This document shows, one piece after another, positions 19,689 to 62,864 of a stretch of DNA of 64,000 nucleotides. The DNA comes from Leptogorgia sarmentosa (taxonomy: Eukaryota). The stretch is taken from assembly GCA_964658305.1 (NCBI GenBank), contig OZ210885.1:19096001-19160000 (forward strand), read 5' to 3'. The translations under genes were made by a program, and so were the position numbers. Position 1 is the first letter of the stretch. Every line of letters starts with the position of its first letter. The notes under the pieces are model-generated. The model ran no database searches and was not told where the DNA came from. It saw nothing but the letters and a program-made list of their open reading frames with translations.

Positions 19689-19739
19689 TGTAAATATATT
19701 TTATTAAACATTGTTTTTGAACACAGTACCCTATGGGTT

Positions 19740-20141: not shown

Positions 20142-20218
20142 ATTTACGTGCGTTTTTTACTTGTGGTTTTTACCTGAGGTTTTTCATATAAGTAGGCGTA
20201 ATGTAAATGATAAAACCC

Positions 20219-20595: not shown

Positions 20596-20640
20596 AATAC
20601 GCTACTATAATGGATTTAGAATATAAGACACATTGACGTG

Positions 20641-21267
20641 ATGGATGTGAGGTTCAAAGTACCTTCTAATTTTTACGTGTCGGGACAAAGTCAAAGCGGA
20701 AAATCATTTTTGGTTCGTAAATTACTACAACATTCAAACGAATTATTTAACCCTGTTCCTACAAAGATCATTTATTGTTATGGGGAGTATCAGAAAGAGT
20801 TTGAAGAACTACAAAATGTGGATTTGGTCGAAGGATTTCCGTCAAATTTGGATGAGTTAACCCAAGGACATGACAATTCTATTGTGGTATTGGATGATCT
20901 TATGGGAGAATGTTCAAAAGATCAACATGTTTCCGATTTATTTACGCGTGGTTCTCACCATAAAGGCATTTCTGTATTATATCTCACACAGAACCTATTT
21001 CCACCGGGAAAATTACCAAGAACAATTAGCTCAAATTGTCATTACATTTTTGTGTTCAAAAATGCACGTGATTCTCTTGGGATTGGAACACTAGCTAAAC
21101 AAATGTATCCTAGACAAAGCAATTTTTTGGTGGATTCCTTTCAAGATGCTACGAAACAACCACATAGTTATTTACTTATTGATTGTCATCCACAAACTCC
21201 GGAAAATATACGATTACGTACAAATATTTTACCGGGAGAAAGACAAATTGTGTATATAAAGAAGTAA
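20641..21267 (+). CDS. A32/FtsK-like genome packaging ATPase (Polinton)
   Basis: Walker A GQSQSGKS, Walker B IVVLDD, LFTRGSHH, YLTQNLF, YLLID, RLRTNI. Confidence 0.93.
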   Translation: MDVRFKVPSNFYVSGQSQSGKSFLVRKLLQHSNELFNPVPTKIIYCYGEYQKEFEELQNVDLVEGFPSNLDELTQGHDNSIVVLDDLMGECSKDQHVSDLFTRGSHHKGISVLYLTQNLFPPGKLPRTISSNCHYIFVFKNARDSLGIGTLAKQMYPRQSNFLVDSFQDATKQPHSYLLIDCHPQTPENIRLRTNILPGERQIVYIKK

Positions 21268-21310
21268 AAACAAAACATACATTCATTTGTGTGATACGTT
21301 GTGTACGATA

Positions 21311-21988
21311 ATGACATTGAGAAACATTACCGTATTTGTTACCGGTGGCACAAAGAAATTAACATTAAATGAACCCTTTTTAACACGAAATGGTACTACA
21401 ATACAACTAAAACGAGCAGCAGTCTTTTGGAAGTTCAAAAATGTTACATCTACAAATAATAAATACACTGTTGATAGTAGTGAAAAAGAAATCGGTGTGG
21501 GGTATTGGGATTTTGAACTCATTAAAGAGCGGTTGAAAGTGGATAAAATCAATCTTACTGCAAACATACACGATAATATGTGTGATATCGAAAATGAAAA
21601 TGATAAACCCGTAAACTTAAAAAACCTCGGAGAACTATTGGGATTTCCTGCTGATACAACCATACCTCAAAATACAGTTGCCAGATCACCAAAAGCAGTT
21701 GACGTTAATCGCGGATTAAGATACCTAAAGGTTACATGTGATCTTGCAAATCCACTTAAAAATGTTGGCACAGACGGAAACACAAACATTGCCTATTTAC
21801 TCATTCCTCCTGGTACACATTTAAACTCCACCGTTTCCGGTTTTAACGAAAATCATCCCGTGGTTTCTGTTAAGGAAGACATTGTTACCGAAATGACGTT
21901 TACCGTAAACCCAAACATAAATATTGCTGTGAATGTTGACGTGCTTCTTAATCTTGTTGTGAATGGTATACATATGGAACACACTTAG
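21311..21988 (+). CDS. Putative Polinton minor capsid (penton-like) protein
   Basis: Beta-strand-rich ORF with LGELLGF and LRYLKVTCDL...VG..G motifs resembling Polinton pentons; located after the ATPase. Confidence 0.55.
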   Translation: MTLRNITVFVTGGTKKLTLNEPFLTRNGTTIQLKRAAVFWKFKNVTSTNNKYTVDSSEKEIGVGYWDFELIKERLKVDKINLTANIHDNMCDIENENDKPVNLKNLGELLGFPADTTIPQNTVARSPKAVDVNRGLRYLKVTCDLANPLKNVGTDGNTNIAYLLIPPGTHLNSTVSGFNENHPVVSVKEDIVTEMTFTVNPNINIAVNVDVLLNLVVNGIHMEHT

Positions 21989-39246: not shown

Positions 39247-40099
39247 TCCTGTCACACAGAGAACTTTAAAAACACCATCCAATCAGAAAACAGAGTCAGA
39301 ATTTGACCCTAATTTAAACTGATTGGCACAGTGCAATCAAACAATTTCCTCTTTCAACCAGAGGTTTATTTTTCCCTTTGCCATTTGCCCCGAAAATAAG
39401 GAAAATAAACCTCTGGAACCAGGGTAACAAAACTCTAGCCTTTGTTCATTTACAAACATAGCAAACCAGGAAATTGTTAGATTTTGGTTATTTTGTCATA
39501 TTTGATATGTTTCGGTTTTCAATAATGTAAACAAAGTGTCTAAAAAATTATAGTATGGTCCAGGGTGCATTCCATGTAGGTTTTGCGGAAGATCTTCGGC
39601 GCAAGGTTTGGATTGCTGGCGCACAAACACGTTGAGGCTGGCGCACAATTTTCGAATTTCAGTGGTTGGCGCAGCATCGCATATGTCCTTCAAAAATTTT
39701 TACTGCAGTAGTAGCTGAATGTGGTTATAAGTCGCTAATGTGTAAAATTTGTTGAAAGTTCAAAACAGTGTCAAATAGATGACTCAAGTATAAATTTAGA
39801 TTTTTGGCACTGATCTCAAAAGTAACACGGACGGACTGACACTGTCGGTCCGTGTTATGCACCTATCAATGTAAATCCCGCGGGGGGGCGGTGCGGGCAA
39901 AGGGTGGGGATTTGACAAAAAAATGAAATTTTAGGTCAAATTCCCGCGGGCTGGGAGATGGACATAGATCAAATGTGTCAAAAATCCCCATATGGGGGAC
40001 AGATTAAATTTAAATTCTAATAACAAAATACTTCTGAAAATATGAACAAGAGTATATATTAAAATGTATTAACAAGAACGTCTCAAATGTGTTTTGAAT

Positions 40100-40660
40100 A
40101 ATTGACCATAACGAAAAAGATGGCGGATGTACATTTTACCAGAATACACTGCGGTCAGAAATCGTTCAGAAAAGCGAATGGACGTCTTTTGAAGGCCAGG
40201 CGTAAGGCAGGAGGTTAATTCCTTCGTTGTGCTAAAGCTACATTTACACACAGCGATTTGTCGGGCTGATTTTGGTAAACAATTGGTGCCTTTTTTCGAC
40301 ATATTGCGATTTAAACCGTTCAATTAAAGCCGAACCCTCTCTCGTCTGTTTATATTATAGGTTTCTGCGTACAAAAAGTTTTCAACAATTTTACAACGGA
40401 AGAAAAATTGTTGAATCGTGAGAAAAATCTGTAGTTTTCTACAGATTTTTCTTCCGATTTTGTGAATCAGGTCACAAGCATTAACGATAGGTTAATTACA
40501 TAGGGCGAGCAAAATCGGGCCGACAAATCGCTGTGTGTAAACGTAGCTTAACATTTCTCATCATTAGGTTATTTCGTGTCATTTTTATTTAGTCATTTAC
40601 TGTTGATGCAATCATTCTGGTAAAATGTACATGCCGCCATCTCTTGTATTATGGTCAATT
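40100..40660. repeat. Inverted-repeat MITE in the 3' region of the Zator-like element
   Basis: AATTGACCATAA..AGATGGCGG.ATGTACATTTTACCAGAAT at 40100-40145 is inverted at 40616-40660. Confidence 0.7.
40236..40548. mobile_element. PIF/Harbinger-type MITE
   Basis: TIR AGCTAC(A/G)TTTACACACAGCGATTTGTCGG; TAA TSD on both sides. Confidence 0.85.
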
Positions 40661-40885
40661 GACTTTGCCAGCTTTCAACACAGTTTGGGCAAAGCCATAT
40701 ACGTGCATCATCAGAGGTGATACCAACAAACACAACTGTCACAACATTTCCAATCCACTTCTTAATTTGCTTTCTACTTCTGGGGACTCATCCATGTTAA
40801 ATGTACTTATTCTACAACAATTATATAATAACAAGAACATCTCAAATTAAATAATTAACTTTGCTTAACTTTGTGCTTTGAATAA

Positions 40886-43800
40886 TTAACTTTGCCAGCT
40901 TTCAACACAGTTTGGGCAAAGCCATTGTCTGCAAATATGTGCATCATCAGAGGTGATCCCGACACAAGGCATATGATGCCAACCAACGCAACTGTCACAA
41001 CATATCCAATCCACTTCTTCGCCTTCTACTTCTGGGGGCTCATCCATTTTGCATGTACTACAACGACTTTCCAATGACTGCTTTCCTTTGTTTTTATCCT
41101 GGTTCTTTCGCTTCGTTGGTTGCTTCCTGCCACGTTTTTCCTCTTGTCGTTTTCCACTTTTTGCTCTTCTTGTCTCGGCAGCCTTTGCCACACCTCTCTT
41201 ACGATTCTCAGCAACGGTTTTCAGATGGTCAAACCACATTTTGGTTTCATCATACGGCAACAAGACTTTTTCAGAAACTTCTAGGATTCTGTTCTCATCA
41301 GGTACATCAAGATGGCAATTGAACTCATTTAAGATGACTTGGGATGGTGGTTCCAGTTGAATATCCTTACCTTGTGAAACCTGTTGCCATAGGTCGTCAA
41401 CCTTGTAATAATGGCCTGAACACTTTTCTTTGCAATCTTTACACTCACTCCAATCATAACGCCTCTTCGGATCTGGGGCAGGAAGTGGTAAGAATGACAG
41501 AGGAGGACCATTTGGATACCACCTGGGTTCTTCAGCGGGTGCACCTTGTTGGCAAAGTGGATGGATACAGTTCGGTTGGTAACAACAAGTGAGACAAAAG
41601 ATGTACTTGGCAGGGACGTTTTTCTTTAAATGTCTCTTTCGCAAATCCCAGATGCGCTTTACTTTGCTATATTCGTTTGGGTGGTCTTCCTTCAATTTTT
41701 CTTTCTGAGCAAGAGTCCCTTTCAAGTATGTAATCACAAAGCCATTCTCATTCTGATAGTTCGTACTATCCGCTCCCCGAAAAAGGTTAATTTCTGTTCC
41801 AGCGCAAGGTGCCTTGTCAACTCTTGATAAGTAGACCTCGATTGCGGAGCTCAGGTTCTCACGAAGCACCTCTTCGTTAATCTTTCCACCACTACTCAAG
41901 CAAGACCCATTTAGCGTTGAAGGAATGAACAAGTTTGCGTGAGCAAGAGCCAAGCATCCATTTTGTAACTCCACTCTATTCCTATAACTGGCCCCACTAT
42001 TCCTTGAGGTAACCAGAAGCATTCGGCTTTTAGTATTCAAATGCCTGACAGTCCACCAATACTGGACTTCGATGTGCGATGGCCCTTCGTCGTAACTCCC
42101 ATCGACTCTGACACACTCGACTTCCTTTCGTTTTCCGGTAAAAGGGTTAATAAATGCCGCTCTTACTTCTTCCTTTTTTTCAAGCATTTCGAGGTCGCCA
42201 AAATGCTGGGCAGCGTTTTTCCCAAAAAGTAATGGGGCTTTTACAATTCCTGCGCAAATCTCGCTGGTTTTCTTGGTCCCCGAAAAGTTATATGAAGTTG
42301 TTTGAAGATTCGATGGGTATTTGTTGACATAGTCCGTTCTGGTTGTAATGTGTTCACTTCCCTTCACGCAAAGGGTGGCATGTAATTTGTGCGTCGCCAT
42401 GGTGTCGAGCCTAAAACCAGCTTGATCGTCCCTTCCAATATTAACAATATTAGAACCATCTTCGTACTGGAGTTTGTCAAGACCAGCATATAGTGATGAA
42501 CTCCAGTGCTGATCCGGATTGTAGCGAACATTAAACCCTTTTCTTGCTCTCTTAGAAACAACCTTTGCCAACCCATGGTATCGTGCAGCAGACCGTCTCC
42601 TTTTGTTTCGTGCACAACACAACTGAACTACAGACCCATATGAAATGGTACGACCATATTTTTCCTCTAAATGTTCTTTAATTCTTCGAAATGTTGTTTT
42701 TTTCTTTGTTTTTCGGTTGCCATCAAAAGTTAATATACCGGTACGTCTCCAAGCATCCGCTCCTGCACCACATTGTCTCACAAAATCCTCGATTTCCTTT
42801 CCTATACCGGGGCAATCCGAAATAATTTTTCCTACTTTCTTACTTCGCCTTCGTTTCAAAAAACGTGATTCTGCTAACCGTTTCTTTATTTGTCGCACAC
42901 ATTTGCGTCGAATAGAAGACCTTCTTTTTAAAATTAGCAGTTTTCCTTGCTCATCCATTGGACTTTTAATTCCTTTAGCCCATATTTCTGCTTCACTAGA
43001 TGCAGAGTCAGAAGTATCTGCATAAATGTCAGTGGTGTCATCAGAATCAATCTGGTCATCATTATGTTTATGTTCCGTGGAGAGGAAGGCTTGTCTCGAT
43101 TGTTCAATAAGCTCTATTTCTTGCACTGAAAATCCCAACGATGGTAGTTGCCTAATGAAATCCAGAAGTTTATCATACCCTTTATGGGAATTATTAGTTG
43201 GCAGATTCATCTCTCTTTCAAAGTAGAACCAGTTTAAATCGCATTTGCGAAGCACGTCGGAAAGTTCTTGTAAATTCGTATGTAATAAATCTGCGTCCCA
43301 ATTCTGTTGGTACGGCACTCCAACGCGAACAGAATCTGAATCCAGCGAGTAATGCCGTCTTTTTTGTTCTGCAATGTCAAATTCTGGTGTTTGGTTAGAC
43401 TGCAGACGTCCTGTAAAATCCGTATTGTCTGTGTCTGTCTCGCTGGTACTATCTTCGCTTTCACTTGTCTCAAATATTCCAAACGATTGCAGCAAAATCT
43501 TGTCTTTAACGTGAGCAATATTTTCAATAGCATCCTTGATCGCACAGGCTTCCTCCATTGCTTGCTCAACTTTTGTTTTCCTGTCACTCATGTCACAAAA
43601 ACCGTAAAGTGTTTTTGCCTTGGAATTTGAAATACCAGATGACTTTACCACAGCATACTTCAGACGTTCTCGCTCACTTTCCGATTCGGCCAAATTCAAA
43701 AGTTTCTTAACTTCATCCTTCGATAATTCTTGATGCTTTGTTTTGTTGGTGTTTATTTCTGATATTAATGCCTGGATGACATTTAGGTTTTCTGATTTGA

Positions 43801-44149
43801 ATTTTTTCATCACGTACAAGCGAAATGTCCCTTCTTTAAGCGAACCCACTCCGACAACTGCTAGAGGCATTTGTAACAATTTTCTACGAGCTTGAAAAGA
43901 CTTGTACTTGACATGTGGACTACACAACTTGAAAGCATCTGAAAGCTTTAGAATTCCTTTTTCTATAATTTCCTTTCCTACTTTGATCATCCCCTCACAT
44001 TCTGTACATGGTTTCTTGTGACGATGCGCGCAAACAATTGACCTGGCATGCAAATATTCAGGAAGTGTCAAACCTTCAAATTTTGAAACGTATATGTTTT
44101 CTTTAAGCAAATCATTAGTTGATAAACAATGTAATTTCTGTTGTTCCAT
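40886..44149 (-). CDS. Zator/TP36-like DDE transposase with C-terminal PHD finger, 1087 aa, uninterrupted
   Basis: Candidate triad GRDDQAG / RVDGSYDEGP / SGASYRNRVE resembles Zator DDKA / DGGPDENP / PGxSAxNxVE. Cys-rich region, then C4HC3 PHD CSTC...WICCDSCVGWHHMPC...WLCPNC. Confidence 0.8.
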   Translation of the reverse strand: MEQQKLHCLSTNDLLKENIYVSKFEGLTLPEYLHARSIVCAHRHKKPCTECEGMIKVGKEIIEKGILKLSDAFKLCSPHVKYKSFQARRKLLQMPLAVVGVGSLKEGTFRLYVMKKFKSENLNVIQALISEINTNKTKHQELSKDEVKKLLNLAESESERERLKYAVVKSSGISNSKAKTLYGFCDMSDRKTKVEQAMEEACAIKDAIENIAHVKDKILLQSFGIFETSESEDSTSETDTDNTDFTGRLQSNQTPEFDIAEQKRRHYSLDSDSVRVGVPYQQNWDADLLHTNLQELSDVLRKCDLNWFYFEREMNLPTNNSHKGYDKLLDFIRQLPSLGFSVQEIELIEQSRQAFLSTEHKHNDDQIDSDDTTDIYADTSDSASSEAEIWAKGIKSPMDEQGKLLILKRRSSIRRKCVRQIKKRLAESRFLKRRRSKKVGKIISDCPGIGKEIEDFVRQCGAGADAWRRTGILTFDGNRKTKKKTTFRRIKEHLEEKYGRTISYGSVVQLCCARNKRRRSAARYHGLAKVVSKRARKGFNVRYNPDQHWSSSLYAGLDKLQYEDGSNIVNIGRDDQAGFRLDTMATHKLHATLCVKGSEHITTRTDYVNKYPSNLQTTSYNFSGTKKTSEICAGIVKAPLLFGKNAAQHFGDLEMLEKKEEVRAAFINPFTGKRKEVECVRVDGSYDEGPSHIEVQYWWTVRHLNTKSRMLLVTSRNSGASYRNRVELQNGCLALAHANLFIPSTLNGSCLSSGGKINEEVLRENLSSAIEVYLSRVDKAPCAGTEINLFRGADSTNYQNENGFVITYLKGTLAQKEKLKEDHPNEYSKVKRIWDLRKRHLKKNVPAKYIFCLTCCYQPNCIHPLCQQGAPAEEPRWYPNGPPLSFLPLPAPDPKRRYDWSECKDCKEKCSGHYYKVDDLWQQVSQGKDIQLEPPSQVILNEFNCHLDVPDENRILEVSEKVLLPYDETKMWFDHLKTVAENRKRGVAKAAETRRAKSGKRQEEKRGRKQPTKRKNQDKNKGKQSLESRCSTCKMDEPPEVEGEEVDWICCDSCVGWHHMPCVGITSDDAHICRQWLCPNCVESWQS

Positions 44150-44169
44150 GTAAATGTTGATTATTTCGG

Positions 44170-44206
44170 GATCCCCTCTTCCTGAAGAAGAGGGGATCTC
44201 TAAAAA
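44170..44206 (-). promoter_or_regulatory. U-run/stop plus 12-bp stem-loop between the two Zator-like genes; candidate recoding or splice signal
   Basis: The minus strand reads GCTTTTTAG A GATCCCCTCTTC TTCAG GAAGAGGGGATC. The -1 frame is open into the transposase ATG. Confidence 0.55.
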
Positions 44207-46866
44207 GCCTGGCTTGAAGTAAGAGGGCTTGAGGGAGGAGACTCAGGAGAGATTATCAGAGTATCGCCGCTGGAATTTGATTCAAGATCTACTTGGTCTG
44301 GACGGACTACTGTGTCATTACCAGGATTATCAACGTTCATGTCAGGAGTCTGTATTAACATGGTACTTTCACTGGAATACGACTCACAGCTTACTTTCTC
44401 GGCAGGAATTAATGTGGCTTCACTTGAAACATGATCAGCTCTCGTATGTAAACCTACATCCAAATTAATAATTCCACCAGTTGACGATTTTGGTGGTTGA
44501 CCAGCACTTGATGTTAGTGTAGATTCGTTGCCTTGCTTTGGGATGCATTGCTTGAAAAGACTTGCAACATCTGACGCTTCTTTGACCTTTTTCTGAGGTG
44601 CACTGTCCGCCTTTTTGGTCTGCTTGCGTTTACCATACCACGTCGACTTTGATTCTTTTTTTTGGAAAGCCGCTAATAGCTTCTCATTTTCACGTTTTTC
44701 ACGCATAAGGACTCTTATACTATTTGACAATTCATCACACAGCTTGAAATCTTTCACTAATTTGGCTTTCTCTATTCTTGATTGCTTGATCTTGAGATGT
44801 TCTTCAATTTTACTGAGAAGGCTTTCGAGGTGTGATATCTCTCTTTGCCTTTCATCTTTGTCTACCTTTGCTCTTTTATTGCCTTCATCACTACTATTTT
44901 CACTGCTACTGGCACAACTTTTGGACCTGGAATATCCTTTCTTGAATAGGTAACCACTTTCTCGCACATGTTGTTTTGCTTTTGCGTACAGCTCGCCTAA
45001 ATGAGAAATAAAGTCAACATAATATATCTGATTTATTCCATATTTTAATCAATTCATTATGTGTTCAATGTGTTACAGCAATAGAGTGTAAATACTGAGC
45101 TTGTACCTATTGTATATCGTTGAAACGCCAAGGTATAAAGCTAGTATAAATGCTTCATGCAAATTACCAAATTTTGTGCTGACTTATAAAACTGATATCA
45201 AGTGTCTCATGACTTACCTCTCTGCAACAAAAGAGATGGTTCCTTCATCACTAAGTTTACTGATGCGTCATTAACAGCAATCTCATATTCATTCTTCGGA
45301 AGGTTATATATTTTAGCCTTCTCTTTTACTTTCAATTCCTCTCCAGTTTCAGTACTACCAGCTATTTCCTACAACGAAATATGACACTATCCATTATTTA
45401 ATAATTGTAGTCTCAAATTGTACACCATGTATGGTAAATCAATGACTATAAAACCTTTTTAGTGGTAATAACTTTTTTCATTGTTTTATTTGAAAGAGCA
45501 TGAAAAAATAAGCCGATTGGCCGTTTACTGTAATACATTTTAGTTGCAAAGTTGTTGACTTAGCACAACTTGTGACTTGTGACGTCACAAGTTGGATAAG
45601 TAGGTTTATTGCATTCAAAACTGAGCATAAGTCAGTTATTATATAATACTCAAAGTCCATGACGTTTTGCATACAGATACAACATGACGGGACGCATTGA
45701 AAAACGTTTCTGGTTTTTCTTGCCAAGATAACACTGTCATTCCCAGGCCCCTTATGGAATTTCTTAAAGGTGATATATTTATCCACGTGTGCATTTTTTC
45801 GAATTATTTTTTACTCAGTAAACCTTAGACATCTGTAGGTATCCATAGTAGACCCACTTCAGATATTATGTTATTCAAATCAATATCCAGTATACGGCGG
45901 TTTTATAGAAATCGTACGAGGGTCCTGGGAACGACAGTGTTACCTTGGCAACAAGACTTGAAATGTCTCAGCTCGTCATGTTGTACCTGTATGCAAAATG
46001 TCATTGAGTTTGAGGTAATAATAACTGACTTATGCTCACTTTTGTATGCAATAAACATACTTAACACAAGTTGTGCTGAGTCAGCAATTCATATTTTGCA
46101 AATAACTAAACTAAAAGACATAGTGTAAAAGTAAACAGTCAATCGTCTTATTTTTTGTGCTCTTTCAAATAAAACAATAAAAAAAATTTAGTTCCAATGT
46201 CATTTAATTAAAAACCTAATTCAACTATCAAACCAGCTACTACAGTATACAAATATTTTAATAGTAACATATAAGCAAAAATGACAAATTTACCTGTTCA
46301 TTTGGGCACCTTAAATCAAGAGTGCCTGTTTCAAAGGTTAACCTCTTCTGCTTATGATCATTGACATGGGTTGGGTTTGCAACTTTGTTTACTCTGACAG
46401 CCTCAAATCCATCAGCCAACAAAAAACATGTGTTGTTTGGGAAAGCACTAAAAACATCTTCATCATCAATAACAGATTCATCTTCTAACATAACTTTCAC
46501 GTTTTCTGCTTCACATTTGAGAGATAGCTTTGCTTTTCCTATTTATATAGTAAAACAAGCAAACAATATAAAATAAAAAAACTTTACCATCAAAACAAAT
46601 CCTTGACCTTACTTATTATATACATGTAGCTATCATTGAATATTCAGTTGAATGTTCTGCTTTAATATTTAATAAAAACAACGAATACATGTAATCAATG
46701 ATGCTGATGTTGCAATGGAAACTAATAATATCAATATCTATAAAACTATTCAAACAAAATGTACATATTTAATAATACCTTTAACTTTTAATTCCTCTAG
46801 CGTACTTGCAGTAATGCAGAATTTTTGATTATTCACACTCTTAACTTTAAAAATTTTGGAAGCCAT
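44200..46866 (-). CDS. Four-exon accessory gene, 426 aa: CIDE-N-like domain, NAB NCD2-like segment, coiled coil, Ser/Pro-rich tail
   Basis: Exons 46866-46779, 46538-46294, 45368-45218 and 44996-44200 all have GT-AG junctions with consistent phases (1,0,1) and total 1281 nt with no internal stop. Confidence 0.8.
45480..46178. repeat. Diverged foldback element in intron 2 of the accessory gene
   Basis: ATTGTTTTATTTGAAAGAGCA, AGCACAACTTGTG, TGAGCATAAGTCAGTTATTA and CAACATGACG recur as reverse complements at 45920-46178. Confidence 0.8.
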
Positions 46867-48021
46867 GAGACAATTTTACTATTAAAAAATATAGCGAAAA
46901 GAAAAATGTTCTGTGAATATCTTGATGCAAATATAGGCAATTTATTACTGACATTATCTATTCCATAAATATACATATTTCAATACACAAATGTCAATAC
47001 AAAAGGACGAATTTTCAGAAAACTTAATTACAGCTTTAAGAACTAAATAGATACACCGAATCGTAAGATGTAATTGGATTTTTTAACTCACCTATTCAAT
47101 CCAAAGTTGAAGATTTTCAACAAACAACGTCAAAGGTCTAACGACATTTAATACGACAACGTGCGAAAATCCAATATGACTTCCGCTTGCGCCTACTGTA
47201 AGGTTGTCCAGCTGACCACAAAATTTCGAATTCCGGTCAAACTTCCCCACCCCCGGAGCCATATTGTTGTTCAAATTCCCGAGGGACGGGAACAGTACTG
47301 AAGTCAAACCCCCACCCCTTGCCCGCACCGCCCCCCCGCGGGATTTACATTGATAGGTGCATTACTTTGAGATCAGTGCCCAAAATCTAAATTTATACTT
47401 GGCCCTTGGGTCACCTATTTTCACCTGTAAACAAAAAAAAGTGCTGTAAATTAATGAAAACTAAATGCAGCACTTGTTCCAAAGCAGCAAAAACGTTTTT
47501 CCATACAAAAAAAGAAGCTAAAAGCGTTATACATTACGCATAATACACGCATCCAAGATGATTACATAATCAGACCATTAAAGTCCGAAATCGGATGACT
47601 GACCGGCAACAGTGGTAAGTCTTAGTGTCATACGAAATTACGAATCATAAAAGTCTAATAATAATTTGATAAATGCGAAATCTATTTTTGCTTTTTGCTA
47701 TCCTGCTCAACAATAGAGTTTGAGTATAGTGATGTAACAGTGGATGTAGGATATATGTAAACAAAAACAACCTTGTGGCTTTTCCTCTAGCCCTCGATTA
47801 GTTGAAGTGCATACATAGTTGATAACCAAATTGTTTCCAGTTTGGGAGTACTTACTACTAAGACAGACCACTGAGAAGTGCTTCTGAGAATCCGGGGTAA
47901 ATTGACGGGCTATCTCAAGCTCAAACAGATTGCATAAGGTCATAACAACCAATTGTTTTTTCTGACAACTATTTATACTTCGTATGTGTTACAATTCATT
48001 CTGGTTTAACAGTTTTTAGCC

Positions 48022-51000
48022 ATGGAGCACATTTGTGCTGTTTGTTCGGAAGAGATAGGCATTGCGCATACATGCAGCACCTGTAACAAGTTTGTCCACA
48101 TCATTTGTGGTATCCCAGAAGGAGAAGAAGGCTTTGGTCAAAAAGTGAAATGCAACAACTGCGTTCAAAAAGGTATGGTGGCAACGTCAATTCTGTAGTA
48201 TTAACTAATATTCATCTATTTAACATAAAACCAGGTTGACGCTATTATTATTCAAAACTACATATTATATTCACAGCTACAATTGAGAGAGATCAACCAT
48301 CACATCCGTCGGCGAAAATTGCAAAAGCACCATTAAAAAGAAAGTTAAGTTCGGATTGGAAAAAAGGAGATGTCGTTGAGCACCCTGTTCCAGAGAAAAT
48401 CAGGAAGATAAACGAAAATTATGTTTGCCTGGAATGCTTTGAGAGATCGTTTGATGGAAAATTTGAGGGTAAAAATGCAAGTATTTGCAGAATAAATCCA
48501 TCTACCATCAATCGGCATAAAACCAGATGGCACACCAACGCCAACAACCAGTCCTGTACTGTAGTTCCTTCTAGTGCTCCCGATGTCCGAAAGTTGTATG
48601 CAAGATACGGTAAAGCGGTCGTTCCGAAGGATAGAAATAGACCTCAAGCGACCACAAGTTCTTGTCAGTCAACCAGCCAAAAAACGTTGCTGTCCTTCTG
48701 TAAAACCACTAGAGATCCGAATGAACCAACTAACCAAGGAATTAATAAAAATTTCAAGAAAATGACAGCGATAGCAAAAGCCAGCAGTGATTCATCTGAG
48801 TCAAATAACAAAGGATTCGAAGGAACTACTCGAGTTCTGAAGATGTAACGAAAACCAACATAGATTCAACTGGATCAAAGAGCCAAGCAAATATCGACGA
48901 CGTAATGAAAGCCATATCTAGCTTGTCTTTAAAGGTCGAAGACTTTGGTAAACGACACTCAAGTTTGGAACAACTCGTGGCAGAAGATAATGACGTCCTA
49001 AAGTCCCTAACGGCAATGCGAACTGCAAGCAATATCCATCAGTTGGCTGAGGCATCCGAATACCTGGAATTTTTTTATAATCAAGAATCGGACACTGCAT
49101 TGTTGCGTTGCAACCCTTGCTTTAAGATGCAAATAACGGCCAGGCCTACACTTAAGAACTTATCCCCGTTCCAAGCCCAAAGAATCATCAATTCTTGTGG
49201 AAGTGGGACACTTGGCACCGGAAAAATCTTCAGCAAGGACGTCACTCGACTTCTGGTGGAGGGACACAACCAAATCTGGTACAGGCAGAAGAAGTTGTGT
49301 ATTGACCACATGTGTTTACTGGGCGACGGTAGCAAATTACACAAGAAGGCTATGGAAGCTTTTAGAAAAGAAGAAGAAAGGGAGAAAAGAAGATCAACCG
49401 CGACAAGCAACATATTCCGAGCGGCAATTGTTGATTTGAAGCTAGGTGCAGCAGCCAGACATTTCGAGACTCTGATCTCCTTTTTGTCGTGTTGCTCAGT
49501 CGATATTGGAAATATTGGACATGGTCGAAATAATTTCAACGATATTCTTTCCTGCTTGGAGAAGTCAGTGAACCGACGAATCGATTCGTGGTTAAACGAG
49601 CCTCTACCCTCAACGTTACTACCACCGCATTTCTGGGCCACAATCGATAAAGCCACACCATCGCGTACGACGAATCAAGCCGTCCTTGTTGTAGCTCGGA
49701 ACGAGGTTGGAATTCCCTGTCCAATCCCTGTTGCTGCTCCGCAAGTCTATAAAGATTTCGCGCCAGCTACATATGACGCTATGGCAGAACTTATGATCAA
49801 ATCAATTAAGGACAACTTTTCGAAAGATGTTCTCTCAAGGCTTTGTGGCGTAGCGGCCGATGGTCCGTACCAAGCCGCAGGATTCCGGGAAAGTCTTTTA
49901 CAACAGCTGGGAATCGAAGACTCTGACAATGGTCAACTTTCACTTCCTGTGACGTGGGATGCAGCTCATCTTCTTAATCTTGGAGTACTCGAGGTAAAGG
50001 ACCAAAGTCCGAGTAGTGATCATTTCAAAACATTCTTGAAGAGGTGTAATGTTTTTAACAACATTCTTGCAAATGGAAAGGGCTTTGCTTTTCTGCAACT
50101 CGTTGACAAAGACGTAAGAAGACCAGTTGCTTATGCTACGCTAAGATTCGCTAGTTCATCGTACGAACAGTGGATTAAAATTGAAAAAAGCTACAGCGCA
50201 TTGTCGAAGGCGTTCGATAAACTGTATCCAAATCGAGCAGAAGATGAACAGTACCAGTACATGATCGCTGGGTCAGATTTTATTGCTGACCTGTTGTCAT
50301 TCCTCGACATATTAAAGCCAATTGTTGATTTGATGTTGAGAGTCCAGTCGCTCGACATGCCTATTTGGAAACTCAAACTTTGGTGGCCTCAAGTTAAAGC
50401 TAAACTGGAAAAGGCTGCAAACGGCGATGCCAGCTCCTTTCCGCGACTTCAAGAAGTTGGAGCAGCGATTAACCCTGGCGATCATTACCAAGGCGTGGAA
50501 CTTCTTGATGGGTGGTTGGTAAAAAATCAAGGTAGTGGAGAAGGACGCAGAGGAACTCTCAACTGGACGCAGCGAGAAGAAATGGAAATTGAGGAAGACC
50601 GCTTGCGATTAGCAGCTGATCTAATGAACGCTCTTGATAGAAGAGTTCAGCCTATTCTTCACGATCGCTGTTTGTCGACACTACAAGTGTTTGATGCCTC
50701 GGCCCTTGTAGCTCTACACTGCGGAAGATGGTGTTTTGCAAATGGCTGTGCCGGATGGAGAATACGAAACATATGGTGTGGAAGAATGTCGAAAGGTATT
50801 GGCTGTTGTTTCAAAAATGCCCCACATTATCAAATCTGGGATGGATTTTGATCCGCGTTTGGCATTTCGATTCATGGAAAAGATCAAGAAAGCTGTCAAG
50901 ATTGGTATCTGGGATGGACTGTGTTTAGATTGGTTTGCACTTGCTGAAGGCACTACTTCGTTACCAATGAACATTAAGCTGACATCGTTACAGCTTGTCG

Positions 51001-51482
51001 AGACAACAACACTTGACATGTTTTTTAAATTAAGATTCGTAAGTGGAAAAGAGTTCACCGTTCGCCTGCAAGAGCAACAGTTTTACAGATCGTTTTATTC
51101 TAACAAAGATGTCTACAACGTTGCAACGCTGTCATCATGTGCTCTTCTAGATATAGTGCTAGCGAAAGGAGGGCCTGAAGCAATTGCCGAGAGTTTCTAC
51201 AATTGCATGAGAGCTCAGCAACAGTCCGGTGGGCAATCAAATGAAAACCTTGCAAAAAGAACCAAGCTCAACTGGTGTTTACCTCCATTGAAGAAATGTG
51301 ATGGCATCATCAGAGAAGGCATCAGCTTGTTCTTTACAGGAGATGGTCCGGAAGGTGTGTTGAAACCTCACCGGAGTAATTATATGCACTCCAGCCGCGC
51401 TAAGGAGTATGTGGTGTCCAAAGTCGTCGATCGATTGGATGCAGAGCCAGGTCGTTGTCCTTTCCTGGCTGATCAGGAATAA
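48022..51482 (+). pseudogene. Divergent hAT-like transposase with N-terminal zinc fingers; two frameshifts
   Basis: Exon 48022-48172 (CAVC..CSTC..HIIC..CNNC), intron, exon from 48277 with BED-like CLEC..RHKTRWH. Core WATIDKAT, AADGPY, WDAAHLLNL, EAIAESFY. Frameshifts near 48820 and 50730. Confidence 0.75.
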
Positions 51483-53416: not shown

Positions 53417-55376
53417 ATGGATGCGGACATTCAACGAACAAATTGCGAGAATTGTCAGGCAGAGATTTTCAATAATTATAACTATTGCAACAAATGTGGA
53501 AGTAGAGTCAACACAGTTGAATCTGGTAAGTTCATAAATTTTTTTGAAAAATAAATTTGTGTTATCTTTATTCAGTCATTTATTCCTGATGCTCTCAAAG
53601 CAATTACATGGAGCATTTTTTTTTTGTTATGGTCAAGCTACTGGTGACCAGTAAAATGTGTACCTTTGCCTGTGGTCCTTCATAAATTTTTGCTACAAAA
53701 AATATTAGTCAAAATTAAAACTAACGTGGCATTGCCACAAATTGCAATAAATTTGTAAAAGTCACCATTTTTATTGATATTTACTCCAATTTTATTACTA
53801 TTGACAGGAGATGAAGAGGTGTTTATTCGACAGTACTTTCATCGTGGTTTTTCATTTGATGTTATATTAGATTTTTTAAGCAAACATCATGGAGTATCCA
53901 TGAGCATGCGCACACTCAAAAGGAGACTTCAAAAGTATGGCCTGAAGAGAAGAAACTGTAACACAGATGAGGAAACAGTACGAAATCTTGTTAGGATGGA
54001 GATGGCTAATGCAGGACAACAGTCTGGCTACCGTACTATTTGGCATGCACTTCGACTCATTCATAACATACATCCACCAAGAAAATTGGTTGCCGAAATT
54101 CTACGGGAGCTGGATCCTGAAGCAAGTAATGCACGCAGGTCTAGAAGGTTAAAGAGGAGAAAATACTTGTCCCCAGGTCCAAATTATTGTTGGCATGTAG
54201 ATGGTGAGTTTGAAATTGTTTCAAAAGCTGTTTGAAATTGTCAGTGCTGGCTTAGGTATTTGGAATTGTAGTATACATCACACCCCACAATGACCATTTA
54301 TTGCTTTTCTTCCACTGGCATTTACTCACCAATGGCTTCATTTTCATGATTTATTTTTTATCAGTAGATTCTCCTGAATGTAGTATCCCAATATTTGTTG
54401 AACAAAAATGTTTCTCTGAGTTTAAGCTCCAGTATAATTGCATCCTCAGCCCTGATTACACAAAATGACCATGTGAAAATGAGGCCATTAGGTATGATTC
54501 AACAAAGGCTATGGTTGTCAGTTGTTGCCCACTGAGTAATGACAGTAATTATTAGCACCCCCAAAAAGGTGCCCCCAAAAGTTAATTCAGTATGATTCTG
54601 TTAAAATAGGTTACGACAAATTGAAACCATATGGGTTTCCGATACATGGGGCCATTGATGGCTACAGTCGTAAAGTACTATGGATGGAAGTAGTCAGAAC
54701 CAACAACTCGCCTCATGTTCCCGCACGACTTTTCCTCGATGCTGTCAAGCAATTAAACGGATGCCCCACTCTGCTAAGGACAGATTGTGGGTCAGAGAAT
54801 GGGATAATGGCAGCGATTCAATGTTATTTCCGGGCAGAGGCACTTGACCAGTTTGCTGGGGAAAGTGCACACAAATATGGAACTTCCACAAGCAACCAAA
54901 GGATTGAGAATTGGTGGTCCCATTTCAGAAAAATGAGATCCCATTGGTGGATCAATTTCTTCAAGGACATGTGTAGCTCTGGTGTGCTTGATGTCAGCAA
55001 TGATGTTCAAAAAGAGTGTCTATGGTTTTGCTTTTATCACATTTTAGATGCAGATATTAAGAAAACCGTAGCAGCTTGGAATTCACACCACATCAGACCA
55101 TCAAGACATGACTGTGTTTCTGGGTCTCCAGACATACTTTTTTATCTGCCTGAGCGGTCAGGGGCTATTGATAATTTGCAAATAGTTCAGGAAGCCAAAA
55201 TAGTTGAAATGGAACTTTGTCACGAGATTAATCGGGAAGATAATGTTGAGGAAAATGACTACCAAGAGTACTTTCACTACCTGATGGAAAATGAAAGAAT
55301 GCAATATCCCACGAGCCCAGAGGAAGCGTTTGATGTTTATCAGCACCTGATGAATATAGCAGAACCTCGACTATAA
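53417..55376 (+). CDS. IS3EU-like integrase-core DDE transposase, 423 aa; exons 53417-53525, 53808-54203, 54610-55376
   Basis: Zinc ribbon, HTH-like SMRTLKRRLQKYGL, GPNYCWHVDG|YDKLKPYGFPIHGAIDGYSR, RTDCGSEN, NQRIENWW, WNSHHIR. Phases consistent and no stops. Confidence 0.92.
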
Positions 55377-55630
55377 TCCTTTATCATGGACCATATCAGC
55401 AAAGCATACATTGTACAAAGTTATCATTTATTGTTATAACTATCAAAGAAAGGTCTGAAAATGGACAGTGTTATTCACAAAATGTTCTTTCCATTCTTGT
55501 TTTTAGTAACAAAAGAATACTTATAGTCTACCAGTAGTTGAAATCTTGAATGTCAAATTGAAGAAAAAACACCATCCCTTATCATATTTACTGAATCAAA
55601 TTTCGAACAAGCAAATCAGTATACTTATAT

Positions 55631-58600
55631 TCACAGATTTCCAAAGCCAACACCTTCTACCATAGCAGAGTCAATATACATATTAAATTCTTCTGGCCCA
55701 GTGGTGTGAACAGGGAAAGTGATACTTAGATCACAGGTCGATGATGTCGGTCTGCATTTACATGTAGCAGGGCAACCATGCTTAAATTTTACTGTGATCC
55801 CTTCGGGGAGACCCAGTGGAGGTACTGCATTTGACCCAGTGATAAACTGAAGCAATTTCGGCAGACACGTTTCCTGGTTTGCTACAGCATAAAATAAATA
55901 AAACTCTAACATTAATGTCAAGTTGCATTATTCATCAAAATGAAATGTAATTATAGTAGAATCAAAATGTACCTTTATATGCAAAAAACTTACCAGAGTA
56001 CTTGCATTCTTCTATGTAATCACTGAAATACTTGTAGATGTTGATTTCAATTTCCTTCATGTTAGAGCCATCTTCACTGAACTCACCATGCATGTTTTGC
56101 AAAAAGGTTTCCGCATTAACTGCAAAAATACTTGATTTTGCAAATACCGGTTCCAGTAACTTAGCATTCTCTTTAATGCTTTGAAGAATTCCAAATGCAT
56201 GTAATCCTTCGATCATTTGGTCCAACATTGGCATTTTGGCAGAAAAGTCAAACATTACAATTGACCTACAATATTAATGAAGTTTGTCATCATGTATTGT
56301 TTTACACCTACTGTACCTGTGTGGGGTATCTAATGTTTGGCAGCAAATTAAAGTCTCAATTGGGGTTTATTTACAGTTTACACATAATCATATAGCAATT
56401 TATTCATTACCCAGCATGGTAAATAATCACCACAGATGGAAAGGTTTTTTTTAACTTAATTTCAAACTGCTTGCAATTTACCTTACAATTGACTCCATGT
56501 TGTTGAAGCTTTCTCTCGATGGGACTCCCCTGTAGCCAACTTTCTCCAGAACGTCAAGTACATTCTCAGAAAGCAGGGTGTCTCTGAATGTTGCTTCATC
56601 TTTACAGTTATGTAACTAGAAGTAAATAAATCATATATCAAGTATTATCTATGAGCTTCCGGCAATGAACTAATTGTTACAGGCTACAATACTCATGTTT
56701 CACTCAACAAAGTATATATACTTTAAAACATCAAGTAGCAGATAAAGTCATATACCTTTTCTATGGTTCTCTTTAGACAAACGTCTTTAACAATATCATG
56801 TGCATCATCAGCCGTAATGCTTGCAACACCATGCACAATATATTGAAATGATGATCGGTTAAGTAGAGCAGGGGCTGGACCACCTTGAACAACCGAGCTT
56901 GCCATAAGTTCTCCCACCACTTTAAATTCTCCCTTTGCAAGGGCAGCCATGTTAGAAACAGGAAATCCATCATGAAACAGTTTCCTACCCATTTGTTCCA
57001 GTGCTTCTGTTGTGAAAATAAAATCCAGTTAATTTACCAGTAAATCAAAGAAAAAATCAACAAGCATCACAAGTTCTACTCACTACCTAAATGATACATA
57101 TGGATAAAGGCATTTCGAGGCCCTTTGCCATGAAATTACTGTGGAGGGCCTTTGCTCAAAATGTCGAATCTGTTTCAACCCTAACCCCAACATATAACAG
57201 CTGTAGAGAGTAAACATAAACAGTATACTGTACCTGAAAAAAATTCCCTTCTGGGACCGCCGTCATCAACAGCTGGTTCCCCAATGAATGTTAATTTCAG
57301 CTTGCTATTTTGGTTGAATTTTTTTCTTCTTATAAGGCGCTCACGTGCATCAACATAATCCTCGTACGCGTATTTTCTCCTGATAGAGATTCTATTGACT
57401 TTTTCTGTGTCAACATGTTGATGAAGACCCAAGATAATTTGCTTGATTTTTTCCAATGGTATACAACTTCCATCATCATCTATTGTTGTACTGACAGGGG
57501 ATTTCTCCATGACTGATTCATCTTGCTCATTTAGCATCTCTGACTGTAAATCAATGTGCACAATACCAACAGGATCAAACTGATCTGCACAAGCATCGGC
57601 ATGTGACTCAATATCATGTATGGGAAAGTCCAAGTAGCAAGTTGGACATCTTGCTTTGGGCTCACAAGACTGATTGGGTATTGTATCTGCAGAAACATTA
57701 GTTTCTAAAAAAGAAACGATGGATGTCTGGGTTTCACTTCCCATTCCTTGTACCGGTACTGACAAGATTTCTTCATCTTCTTCAATCTCATCTATATCGA
57801 CATAAAATTTCAGTTCCATTTCATGTTTTCGAAGGCATTCTAATTTGCATAGATGTAGTGACATTTTGGAGTAAGGTTTTCCCAAATCCTCTTTATAAGC
57901 TTTCAGCGAAAAAAAATCTGAGGACCCCGGTAAGAGATTCACTTCTGTGTTGTCTGGATAGAGAAGAACATATTCATTGATATTTCCATTGAATGAACGA
58001 AAATGTTTGCAGTGTTTATTAAGTGCTGCTTGGAGTAAACCCTTTGTATTGATACTTGTGTCGACAGCAATTGGAAGGGTCCTTCCTTTTAGTAACTTTA
58101 AACAAGAGTCGGCTTCGCTAAACTCCTTTATGCCCACTTGAATTTTTACTTTTTCAACAGTATTAGCTTTAGCCTTGCTGGACTTTGATTTCTTGAGTGG
58201 TAAAGTTGATACTCTCTTGGTCTCTTTTCGCTTTCGGAATTCTTGATAGGTTAAGGAATTATGTTGCCTGGTTTCTGGACTTGCGAGAGAACTTGAACTC
58301 GGAGCTGAAGCAGATTGAGCTGCATGAGATTGACCTTTAATTAATGAATATATAGGAATAGATTTATATAGAATTTCTATATATTTTATTTTTAGAATCC
58401 AACACAATAGATTTATAAATAGTAAAATATTAATATTATATTATTAAGCAAAACCTAAGCAGCTTATATTACATATTACCTAGCTTACCTAGCTATAGTT
58501 ACGAAAATATATTTTCAATAGTTGAAAGTTTGATTTAGGCCATGGAAGCACCGCTTTGATACACAGATATTATATATACCAATTTTGGAAATTATAAATA

Positions 58601-59940: not shown

Positions 59941-60460
59941 AGGGTCATACCTAATTTTAGTGTGCAGTGATAACCAATTTGTGCAGTGATAAAAGTAAAA
60001 TGTGCAGTGATAAAATGCTAAATGTGCAGCAATAAATTTTTAGAAGCAGTGACCTAAAAAATTGAACGATAAAACAAGTAACAGTGAAACATTACAAATA
60101 TAGAGCATGATAAATTTATAATCACGATATATAAAGATGTAAACCAATGTAAACAAAGAAAAATATGGTGTTTCCACTTTCCACTTTCTATCATGAAGAA
60201 AGGGAAATTTCAGGAAATGGAAATTTAAGATATTGTCGGTTGCAACTTTTTGCAACAAAGGACAAACAGTCAAACAGTAGCGGAAAGGAAGTTACAGACA
60301 AGCCATATAGTTGCATTATTGCAATAATTATTGCCCATTTCCACATGAAACGTCATTATTTGTGGAGAACTATTTGCGCTGATCACTCCACAACTGTTCA
60401 CCCTTAGTTGCCAGCGACGGTAACACCATGTGGTAACACCGAAGAACAGAATTTATTAAA

Positions 60461-62864
60461 ATGTCTGATGCAAAACAGCGAAAGATTGAAAGTTTTATAC
60501 CATTAAAATCAGTGGATGCACATTCATCAAAGCAACGACAGCTTAACAACCAACAGATTGAACAAAATGGCCCAGAATTAGCCACTACGTCCACAGAGCC
60601 TACATCTAGGACTTCTAGTAATAGCACTGCCAGTGGAGAATCTAACGATGAAATGGACGAAGATTTTGCAACATATCCCAGTAGTTCTGACAGTGGTCGC
60701 AATTTTGTCGCTTCTGTACCCACAGCATTGGCATCTGAGCTAACAGAAACACAATTGTCATTTGTGAAACCGGATGCGTCCAAATCATTTGCCTCTCATA
60801 AAGACTATTCTATTCAGCCTGTGGCAGGACAGAAACGGAAACGTGTTTTTTGTGTCGTATGTTCAGCAAATCCTGCTATTGTGAAGCGTGCGTGTTACAG
60901 GGGAAGGGTGCCGCCAATTTGTCAACCCGGAGGGACAGAAGCAAGAGAGAAAACAGTTCAAGAACACTTACAGAGCATTGCGCACCAGGAATGTCTCAAA
61001 GCAGAACGCTTAAAAAAACTCTCAGCTGTAGAAAAATCTCAATCTGTGCCACTGGAAAAAATGTTTAGTTCACAGCGTCAGCGGCTGGCCAATAAAATTG
61101 GATCATTGATACTTCATGTATACAATGATGCAAAATGCTTAACGTCGTCTGCCTTTTCCTGGCCGTCAAGGGTAATTGCTGCAAAAATGGCATACGAGTT
61201 TGATTACAACAAACCATTTAAACCGTACAGCCCTTCTAATTTTGACCTGCAGTACATTAGACCTCCAGTTGTGCAGGAACTTTTACAGACCATAGTGTCA
61301 GCTGATTTACCAAGAATTGAGAAAGAAATTGATTCATGCATTGCTGCATCTTTTCGTTGCGATGCATCTATGGACCAAACACAAAAAGGTAATGAATACA
61401 TGCTTCTCAATATCATAAAGAACGATGGGAAAAGGGATCTAAAATTTATTGGTATTGGGCATGTGACAGAACCAGGTGCACCTGGTCATCTGCAAGCACT
61501 TAAATCAGGTGCAGCTGATACTGTTGGCTTAGACAAAGTACTCAAAGTAGTCAATCATCTATCAACTGATGGGGAAAGTAAGAATACTGGGCATTCATCT
61601 GCAAATGCATATAAAGATTTGTGTAAGACTGTTCCAGAAATTGATCATTCGGTAAAGAAGTTATCTGGAATTGCTACATTTTTCCACACCTCAGCAAAGC
61701 GTACCACTGATTTAGAGAAAGTTGGGGAAAAAGAAGGACTAACTGTACGTCGCATTCTGAAATACTTTGAAGTCCGATGGTCAGAGTTTACTGCTGCTCT
61801 TCTTGATTCTATTTTGTGTTCTTGGTGCCGTGTGGAGGCTAACTTATATGTTACTGACCACAGACTGTTTAGTGCTGTAAGAAATGAATCCATTTTGGCA
61901 ATAAAACAGTTTATGGACCAAAGACTTAAAGTTGATAAAAATGCCTCAAAAGCGTTCACCTCTTTCACCAAATTCACAGCAAACGAAGATGATATAAGAG
62001 ATATCCATCACTCTATTGCTCCTGACCTCAGTTTGGGAAATTTGGCTATTCAATTTCAGGAGTTGCAAGACTGTGATGAGATACCAAAAGAAAATCCTCA
62101 CACAGTCCTACAGAGCATTGTGAAAGGAGATCAAGAACATTACTATGAAAATGTTTCTGTTGTTCTTGGCTGCATTCTAGCATGTAAGCCACATTCTGCC
62201 GACTGTGAAAGAGTCATTTCATTGTACAACAAAGTAAAATCAACATGTAGATCATCCTTGAAACCAGGGGCGTAGCCAGCCCTACAAAAGTGAGGGGGTC
62301 CATTCATCCAGTAGATCATATAGAGCTATACTGCGCATACAAATATGTCCAAACGTATTTCATATATTTTAGGCGGGGATGTTATGAACTTGAAAATAAC
62401 AAATGTTTCACAAGTGCACCATAAACCAAACAGCCTAATGTGTGTATATTAATCAAATAATATATTAATCAAATGTTGGGAATCCAATGGTGATTAGCCT
62501 ATGAGGAGGCGTATCCTTATATCCGCTTTTTTACTTGATTTTGAAGGAATTGAAAGACATGTTTTGAATAAAAGTGGGGGGGTCCGGACCCCCCCATTCC
62601 CCCCCGTGGCTACGCCCCTGCTTGAAACGTCAAACTATGAGCGACTACCTCTACATAAACATGAATATGCCACCTCTCTCTGAGTTTGATCCAAGACCTG
62701 CAACTTTGCAATGGATGAATGAGAAGGACCATAGGACAAGAAATATTCCGAAAGCAGGAGAGCAAGATTGGTTCAGCAACGTTTTCCAGCAAGATAACAA
62801 CTTTGATAATCCAGAACTAGCTCAAGGGAAAGCGGACGAAAAGCCAATAAAACGAACGTTTTAG
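60461..62864 (+). pseudogene. hAT transposase interrupted by a MITE, with apparent in-frame deletions
   Basis: CVVC..HLQSIAH, RCDASMD, STDGE, FEVRWSEF, PHSADCERVIS. The frame continues SLK|RQTMSDYLYINMN after removing the MITE. The CxxH region appears deleted. Confidence 0.85.
62265..62620. mobile_element. hAT-type MITE
   Basis: TIR CAGGGGCGTAGCCA / TGGCTACGCCCCTG with perfect 8-bp TSD CTTGAAAC. Confidence 0.95.

Follow-up and report, generated by a model that had tools for sequence, protein, structure and literature searches.

A 64,000-nt stretch of Leptogorgia sarmentosa DNA (contig OZ210885.1, positions 19,096,001 to 19,160,000; hereafter the window, in whose coordinates features are given) contains a complete DNA transposon of 7,504 bp at 39858-47361. 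The element possesses two open reading frames (ORFs), both on the minus strand: a spliced upstream gene, here called ORF A, and a transposase gene. A previous sequence-only reading had taken it for a Zator-like transposon and a possible undescribed two-component system. The latter view holds in part: the element does have two ORFs, and the homology of ORF A to CIDE-N and NCD2 domains and its enclosure with the transposase agree with it, but the coupling of the two ORFs was missed. The best reading of their junction is that a conserved signal of the -1 frameshift type couples ORF A to the transposase. The arrangement of the two ORFs is confirmed as real and conserved, and the frameshift is predicted from the sequence. 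The element, a member of a large family in animals, is likely to be an autonomous Asp-Asp-Glu (DDE) transposon with two ORFs.

Junction of ORF A and the transposase

In the window the stop codon of ORF A, a TAG at 44200..44202 (minus strand, like all features of the two genes), lies directly 3' of a predicted slippery heptamer, G-GCU-UUU (44203..44209). Four nucleotides past the slippery site there is an RNA hairpin of at least 12 bp and -23 kcal/mol (44170..44198), a predicted stimulator of frameshifting. It was recognised by folding against shuffled sequences (z -5.2, 0 of 200 shuffles equally stable) and was the strongest among the 390 windows of the element that were tested. Counted from the slippery site, the transposase frame (40886..44209) stays open over 1,107 codons, and its first ATG, at 44149, is not conserved.

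An alignment search with the transposase retrieved 54 loci (52 from metagenomes and 2 from genome records; designated by L numbers). Twenty-two junctions were compared, the duplicates L001 and L005, the decayed copies L015 and L049 and loci without cover having been dropped. All have an N-NNU-UUU heptamer: G-GAU-UUU in seven, A-AAU-UUU in four, G-GGU-UUU in three and other forms in eight, including G-GCU-UUU of the window. ORF A invariably ends in a run of 4-6 T, and a stop follows the heptamer within two codons at 19 of the 22 junctions. When the end of the ORF was used as the anchor instead, 12 of 16 ORFs had an in-frame NNT-TTT at most two codons from their stop; elsewhere its frequency is 0.4% per codon. 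The same signature can be seen in the proteins, since 75 of 150 independent ORF A representatives have Phe within the last four residues (about 13 expected), and many of those without a terminal Phe look truncated or decayed. The hairpin starts about 4-10 nt past the heptamer and falls in the top 5% of control windows at 18 of the 22 junctions; its base pairs vary between copies while the offsets are constant. A review describes an umbravirus G_GAU_UUU that is followed by a required stop, and lists G_GGU_UUU as highly shifty (PMC5009743).

The transposase lies in the -1 frame relative to ORF A in 17 of the 21 loci with both frames defined, and the other four are decayed copies. In the intact copies (the window, L002, L006 and L008) the -1 frame is open for 1,102-1,111 codons from the heptamer. 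The first ATG in this frame comes at codon 20, 20, 51 and 44, respectively, and at codons 73-114 in other copies, and the transposase Met of the window aligns with other residues within a conserved stretch. Synonymous divergence is lower over the first 20 codons (pS, the proportion of synonymous differences, 0.24 and 0.43 over only 14 sites) than elsewhere (0.6-0.8). RNA-like contigs from two records span the junction without gaps, and the spliced copy L002 is continuous from ORF A through the entire transposase. The features by which -1 frameshift sites are recognised are present, apart from the exceptions given below: an in-register slippery site at the overlap, a structure 3' of it (expected 5-9 nt away), and a downstream ORF in the -1 frame without a conserved start.

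We therefore favour, and think probable, a single spliced mRNA from which ORF A would be made in abundance and, through -1 frameshifting at its stop, a fusion of ORF A with the transposase in smaller amounts. The fusion would be about 1,530 aa long (predicted, 426 + 1,105 = 1,531 aa). With the stop codon in the A site, ribosomes would very probably pause at the hairpin and a minority would slip back one base. Most would terminate at 44202 and release ORF A, the fusion being the product of the minority. Because the -1 signal is conserved and a transposase start is not, the transposase probably has ORF A as its N-terminal part.

Several observations weigh against this interpretation. The heptamers were picked by eye near the predicted start with N-NNU-UUU as the anchor, and the loci are related, their counts not being independent. 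G-GCU-UUU of the window and seven other heptamers lie outside the canonical X-XXY-YYZ, G-GA and G-GG types, so that these call for slippage of a single tRNA at the stop. L007 and L008 have the heptamer and the stop but no local hairpin, although L008 is fully intact, and the junction hairpins of L019 and L036 are weak and unremarkable. RNAalifold gave no consensus structure on a MAFFT alignment of the junctions; this is because loop lengths vary, and per-sequence folds were used instead. An ATG in the window, 51 nt past the ORF A stop, could begin a nearly complete transposase, and a contig spanning two ORFs is no proof of a single transcript. A search of Rfam returned chance-level matches only. 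In the two hairpin-less loci (L007:588-700 and L008:1512-1620) the sequence is G-GAU-UUU plus stop, with an intact -1 frame in L008, and a distal or protein stimulator may possibly take the place of the hairpin there.

The ATG just mentioned, which L002 has at the same distance, together with a hairpin that adjoins the stop, would also suit translation into separate proteins: the transposase would be started by termination-reinitiation, leaky scanning or a non-AUG start near the hairpin, and ORF A would be a trans-acting accessory. The absence of any fused protein among proteins of 323-2,000 aa points the same way, weakly, as gene callers do not model frameshifts. However, the ATG is not conserved, coding conservation reaches the U-run, and separate translation leaves the fixed -1 frame, the conserved U-UUU and the C-terminal Phe unexplained. 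We regard it as improbable.

The U-rich end of ORF A could also be thought of as a 3' splice site by which alternative splicing joins the transposase exon to upstream exons of ORF A. TTTTTAG in the window and L002 is a plausible acceptor of compatible phase (in the window its join to the donor of exon 1 or of exon 3, both of phase 1, would be in frame), and there were seven contig joints beyond those listed. But a splice acceptor is unlikely here because the stop varies among the 22 junctions (TAG in 7, TAA in 10 and TGA in 5) and five have no AG within 12 nt. Moreover, AG offsets vary in phase and the contigs run unspliced across the junction, which makes this explanation very unlikely. Slippage of RNA polymerase on the invariant run of 4-6 T, which would fuse the ORFs at the RNA level by giving a minority of the transcripts an extra base, has been mentioned for an IS630 element (PMC5009743) but is highly improbable here, since the T runs are short, no indel near 44200 occurs among the contig rows listed (contigs drop rare variants), and a hairpin at ribosome spacing with an adjoining stop suits translation better.

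Gene structure of ORF A

ORF A is encoded by four exons (46779..46866, 46294..46538, 45218..45368 and 44200..44996), every intron being GT..AG, which give a stop-free protein of 426 aa as the sequence-only reading had proposed. Fifteen open GT/AG exon combinations were enumerated, of which this version is one. It is picked out by the relatives: the genomic relative L006 has three introns at identical positions and phases, and L002, where introns 1 and 3 are missing, is still in frame. L001 retains intron 3 though it is otherwise 99.9% identical to L002. The RNA evidence came from contigs of four runs (of ten listed) of a single study, whose RNA status is guessed. Contigs from all four runs skip intron 3 (a gap of 221 nt). 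Introns 1 and 2 were reached by depth arithmetic, the joints themselves not being displayed. The 195 unlisted letters of the contigs fully and exactly explain the depth over exon 2 in run X1 and that over the first bin of exon 2 in run X2, from which we infer splicing of intron 2 in both runs; the residual depth in X2, and in that run only, fits splicing of intron 1. The CIDE, NCD2 and coiled-coil parts of ORF A are under purifying selection (proportion of nonsynonymous differences, pN, 0.20-0.29 against pS 0.75-0.82, compared with L002).

Domains of ORF A

Exon 1 contains the start codon and the first part of CIDE-N with a basic patch, and exon 2 the second part with an acidic patch, followed by a linker; the domain thus retains one patch of each charge, as judged from the sequence. 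The two Pfam matches to PF02017 are colinear (positions 2-28, 17.3 bits, in exon 1 and positions 28-69, 25.5 bits, in exon 2), and exon 2 alone passes the cut-off of 23.5. In L002 the domain scored 59.6 bits, and the best structures in PDB matched by the CIDE domain are ICAD/DFF45 (E 7e-7 for L002). The proposed CIDE-N similarity is therefore well founded.

The first half of NCD2 is encoded by exon 3, whose assignment rests on a profile match and whose splice joint was seen in the run contigs. Exon 4 encodes the second half, a basic linker, an antiparallel coiled coil (about 44859-44626) and a low-complexity tail, according to the splice and structure models. NCD2 similarity had also been claimed. 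Exon 3 of the window by itself is under the Pfam cut-off (PF04905, 12.9 bits, E 0.12, cut-off 25), and the claim is upheld by the relatives: of six with an uninterrupted frame, four score above the cut-off (27.5-33.6 bits) and two under it (16.2 and 20.4 bits). The family profile matches NCD2 of NAB1 (PDB 2yuf, E 2e-9), covering only residues 64-132 of 2yuf, and in a protein atlas the ORF A core adjoins an NCD2-bearing sponge cluster and NAB homologues. In the AlphaFold model of the core (predicted local distance difference test, pLDDT, 89) the NCD2 part is helical, the basic linker is disordered, and a long hairpin of helices follows. Foldseek found no match to this model at E 0.001 or better, and 2yuf was absent among the matches listed. 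Of the checks suggested earlier, profile searches of Pfam and PDB thus agreed with the two domains while the structure search did not add to them, and because of this the NCD2 assignment rests on sequence profiles. No Pfam match to NCD1, the EGR-binding domain, was found in the four window exons or the scanned upstream ORFs of relatives, and neither nuclease nor CIDE-C domains were detected in ORF A.

Two further features of ORF A may be noted. A D-T-(L/I)-I-L motif is kept in the low-complexity tail, 10-20 residues before the stop (44230-44250 in the window, and in relatives), and is possibly a linear binding motif. The turn of the coiled coil (44859-44626) resembles a UVR-type hairpin, with a weak match to the Clp ATPase subunit 6lsy (E 0.21).

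The transposon family and its N-terminal modules

Twenty-one loci, about 17 of them distinct, contain the N-terminus of the transposase together with 600 nt or more of upstream sequence, and in every one the ORF A core precedes the transposase on the same strand. Whether ORF A homologues are consistently enclosed with this transposase by TGCACC-type terminal inverted repeats (TIRs) had been raised as a check, and the 21 loci and six complete copies bear this out. The TIRs are about 58 bp long and start with TGC(A/G)C in the six complete copies and in five additional right ends. Copies with both ends preserved (the window, L003, L006, L009, L048 and L053) have matching TWA duplications, TTA or TAA, in six of six cases. 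A one-off capture of ORF A was considered and is ruled out by its presence in 21 of 21 informative loci.

A profile of the ORF A core found 1,599 protein clusters at 50% identity, 924 of them at E 1e-10 or better; these clusters are known as proteins only. Named relatives of the transposase come from octocorals and one stony coral, and no relative was found in the viral sequence collection. P0269, an ORF A homologue of Paramuricea clavata, is annotated as 'DNA fragmentation factor subunit alpha-like', which is probably a misannotation. L053, L054, L078 and L079 are animal-type elements in genome records labelled archaeon and bacterium, most likely owing to contamination of the assemblies with host DNA. 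L079 (G002:C10:257000-271000), which carries a TGCACC-type end, and protein P0205 show internal deletions that join the 5' part of ORF A to the PHD-coding end of the transposase; they are likely to be non-autonomous derivatives. L004 has an extra ORF upstream of ORF A (L004:216-1082) with a weak TNP-like RNase H match (E 0.085), which may belong to another element.

CIDE-N is present in six loci (the window, L002, L003, L006, L014 and L019). L004/L005, L009/L015, L053, L079 and P0205 have a different N-terminal domain instead. Its nearest family-named neighbours in the atlas are ubiquitin-like (GRHL1-C, TDP-43-N, PB1 and Par3-N), and it is called ubiquitin-like from these language-model neighbours, which scored 0.83-0.92. 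The CIDE and PB1-like modules gave no significant mutual alignment (hhalign 3%). A SAM-like N-terminal segment in L045 comes from a single weak match (E 0.47). In the transposase tree neither module forms one clade. Each requires two changes, and 46 and 53 of 500 shuffles did as well, so that no order of module swaps is claimed. The core of ORF A, as read from these sequences, is NCD2 plus the coiled coil, CIDE-N being one option among N-terminal modules.

It had also been suggested that ORF A engages host pathways. The CIDE-N domain would bind DFF40/DFF45 and damp apoptotic DNA cleavage, or NCD2 would mimic NAB corepressors; both are compatible with frameshifting. ICAD/DFF45 being the best PDB matches of the CIDE domain speaks for this, as does the role of NCD2 in NAB2, where it acts as a repression domain (PMC8230482). 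Nevertheless, a host-directed role is less likely, given that CIDE-N can be replaced and is confined to the six loci above, and that NCD1 was not detected by Pfam in any piece scanned. Engagement of the apoptotic nuclease in particular is weakened, since a module that several copies have swapped is not a conserved core. Overall we think a host-directed effector unlikely.

The transposase

The RNase H-like DDE core of the transposase was located at 41969..42430 by conservation and fold comparison, and the structure model shows an RNase H-like core at about residues 565-790. Candidate catalytic residues are D574 or D575, D683 and E727 (numbered from the ATG at 44149), which are at least 95% conserved in 84 sequences. 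The best catalytic-domain matches of the model are Metnase, Mos1 and Sleeping Beauty (Z 6.7-7.1), with which integrases tie, and all lie below the comfort level of Z 8; for Metnase and Mos1, Z is 7.0-7.1 over 172 aligned residues with a root-mean-square deviation of 3.7-3.8. Foldseek gave no match to the transposase model at E 0.001 or better. According to the model the transposase has an RNase H-like fold of the IS630-Tc1-mariner (ITm) type with a conserved D-D-E.

Further downstream lies a homeodomain-like three-helix bundle (41195..41347), supported by Pfam matches in homologues (Homeodomain in 7 of 31), by helices in the model and by homeodomain structures at Z 6.2-6.8. At the C-terminus there is a PHD finger (40907..41062), which in the window is just below the Pfam cut-off (PF00628, E 1e-4) but has PHD matches in PDB and is found in 22 of the 31 homologues. 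About 230-250 nt further on, the PHD-coding 3' end recurs in decayed form (window 40640-41060), and a duplication of this kind is also present in L001 and L002, there at 92% identity.

Ends of the element and insertions within it

The TIRs, found by inverted-repeat comparison, occupy 39858..39915, at the 3' end of the element's genes, and 47304..47361, at the promoter side. They are 58 bp long, start with TGCACC and are 96.6% identical. They are flanked by a target-site duplication (TSD) of TTA on the left (39855..39857) and on the right (47362..47364). The flanks (39785-39857 and 47362-47401) are the two arms of an older small palindromic element resembling a miniature inverted-repeat transposable element (MITE), into one arm of which the transposon inserted. 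The length of the TSD is fixed at 3 bp because the long palindrome is restored once the element and one TTA are removed. Downstream of the transposase there is a high-copy MITE-like insertion (40100..40661) with nested inverted repeats, very high depth and many differing flanks, and intron 2 of ORF A contains a palindromic MITE-like insertion with inverted repeats (45470..46188).

A possible role for ORF A

PB1 and SAM domains self-associate head to tail. CIDE domains form charge-complementary head-to-tail filaments (PMC8647176), and by analogy with CIDE biology self-assembly of ORF A is plausible. We propose that the N-terminal ubiquitin-like module, CIDE-N here and PB1-like elsewhere, would polymerise head to tail and that free ORF A and the fusion would therefore co-assemble. 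Assembly through the NCD2/basic segment and the coiled coil would hold the transposase in a nuclear scaffold and limit its dose, in parallel to OrfA acting on OrfAB in IS3-family elements, and the PHD finger would contribute chromatin targeting. Polymerisation and the dose-limiting scaffold, which draw on domain type and on the analogy with IS3 and gag-pol, could equally well prove right or wrong.

Comparison with known systems

The TSD preference of Zator is TWA. Zator reportedly, as described by Bao and colleagues in 2009, has a single ORF and short TIRs starting 5'-GG. By contrast, the present element has two ORFs, introns, TIRs of about 58 bp starting with TGC and a transposase of 1,100 aa with homeodomain-like and PHD modules. 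A 3-bp TSD is common to both (PMC10045372). The ITm-type catalytic fold is shared by ISAzo13, TP36, Zator and the present transposase, and a DG..G-like motif at the second Asp and a G.S..N..E motif before the Glu are, by eye, common to ISAzo13 and our sequence. However, hhalign gave 2.4% (E 0.02) with ISAzo13 and 0.5% with IS630, neither significant; hmmsearch reached E about 1e-3 at best, in tiny databases, and PF07592 was not among the 25 of 32 Pfam families listed for transposase homologues. As for the earlier label, the 3-bp TSD in six of six copies agrees with Zator, the TGC(A/G)C termini and two ORFs disagree, and the grouping of the transposase is not significant. It is reasonable to call the element Zator-like without filing it as Zator, which was compared by description, the proteins compared being those of ISAzo13 and IS630.

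The closest parallels to the predicted layout are found in prokaryotes and retroelements. In the insertion sequences (IS) IS1, IS3, IS5 and IS630 an upstream regulatory ORF is fused to a catalytic ORF in the -1 frame by OrfA/OrfAB frameshifting (PMC5009743; PMC5771124). The present element differs in being eukaryotic and spliced. In addition, OrfA of these elements is a helix-turn-helix protein while ORF A consists of a ubiquitin-like module, NCD2 and a coiled coil, and the present transposase part appears to retain DNA- and chromatin-binding modules of its own. Retroviral and long terminal repeat (LTR) retrotransposon gag-pol and umbraviruses have a similar heptamer, stop and stem-loop, and combine an abundant self-assembling protein with a rare enzyme fusion (PMC5009743). 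The present element, in contrast to gag-pol, is a cut-and-paste element with TIRs and TSDs and without reverse transcriptase, protease or capsid fold.

Two-gene DNA transposons are familiar in eukaryotes from Harbinger and EnSpm. In Kolobok, KolX and its lineages likewise provide an accessory protein next to a DDE transposase (PMC9587614), as in the present element. The accessory genes of these three groups are described as separate proteins, unlike the predicted fusion, and the searches made turned up none with NCD2 or CIDE-N. With DFF45/DFF40/CIDE and NAB1/NAB2 ORF A shares true CIDE-N and NCD2 homology; the difference is that nuclease, CIDE-C and NCD1 were not detected in ORF A, which is a transposon protein. 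The Oxytricha TBE is the one eukaryotic DNA-transposon case of frameshifting in the review text consulted (PMC5009743), and the available part of a TBE preprint makes no mention of it; otherwise the frameshift literature consisted mostly of reports on bacterial IS. No report in the literature searched joined a Zator transposon with CIDE-N or a Zator transposase with PHD, or treated the structure of NCD2 in NAB1 and NAB2. Nor did CIDE-N or NCD2 occur in the papers listed by further searches; Repbase, Dfam and subscription journals lay outside these, so that prior curation is possible.

Neighbourhood of the element

The window is dense in transposable elements. Next to the transposon lies a transposase-like gene on the plus strand (48025-51482) with a Cys-rich first exon, whose long ORFs are interrupted where the frame shifts, near 48810-48850 and again near 50712-50851, and which has no notable Pfam match. 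Decayed ORFs at 16677-21988 (plus strand) resemble, by eye, a protein-primed DNA polymerase and a packaging ATPase of the Polinton/Maverick type. Other remnants, also identified by eye (193-2663, 9093-10100, 13607-38200, 53759-58440 and 60437-62275), resemble Academ, P/THAP, Gypsy, BEL, an integrase-core gene with HECT-like neighbours and a hAT-like ORF.

Implications

The usual assumption is that a eukaryotic cut-and-paste transposase is translated from an AUG of its own or arises through splicing. If the predicted frameshift is real, dose control in the style of IS3 or gag-pol would extend to eukaryotic DNA transposons, and many natural frameshift signals would become available from animal nuclear genomes. 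Annotation would change as well, as gene prediction breaks the transposase up and cuts it short and has labelled ORF A DFF45-like. The real transposase would exceed the visible ORF by about 440 aa, which matters for expression of the enzyme. NCD2, which in the sources consulted is tied to NAB proteins, gains about 1,600 mobile relatives, which makes one ask what the domain does biochemically and where it came from. Tentatively, and with less confidence than in the fusion itself, these elements may represent a widespread, undescribed lineage of animal DNA transposons at superfamily level with a gag-pol-like design. In such a design ORF A would be built into a nuclear filament or condensate by a polymerising domain of interchangeable type (CIDE-N, PB1-like, possibly SAM), and the frameshift fusion would be loaded into it at fixed stoichiometry; NCD2 may have been exchanged with host NAB.

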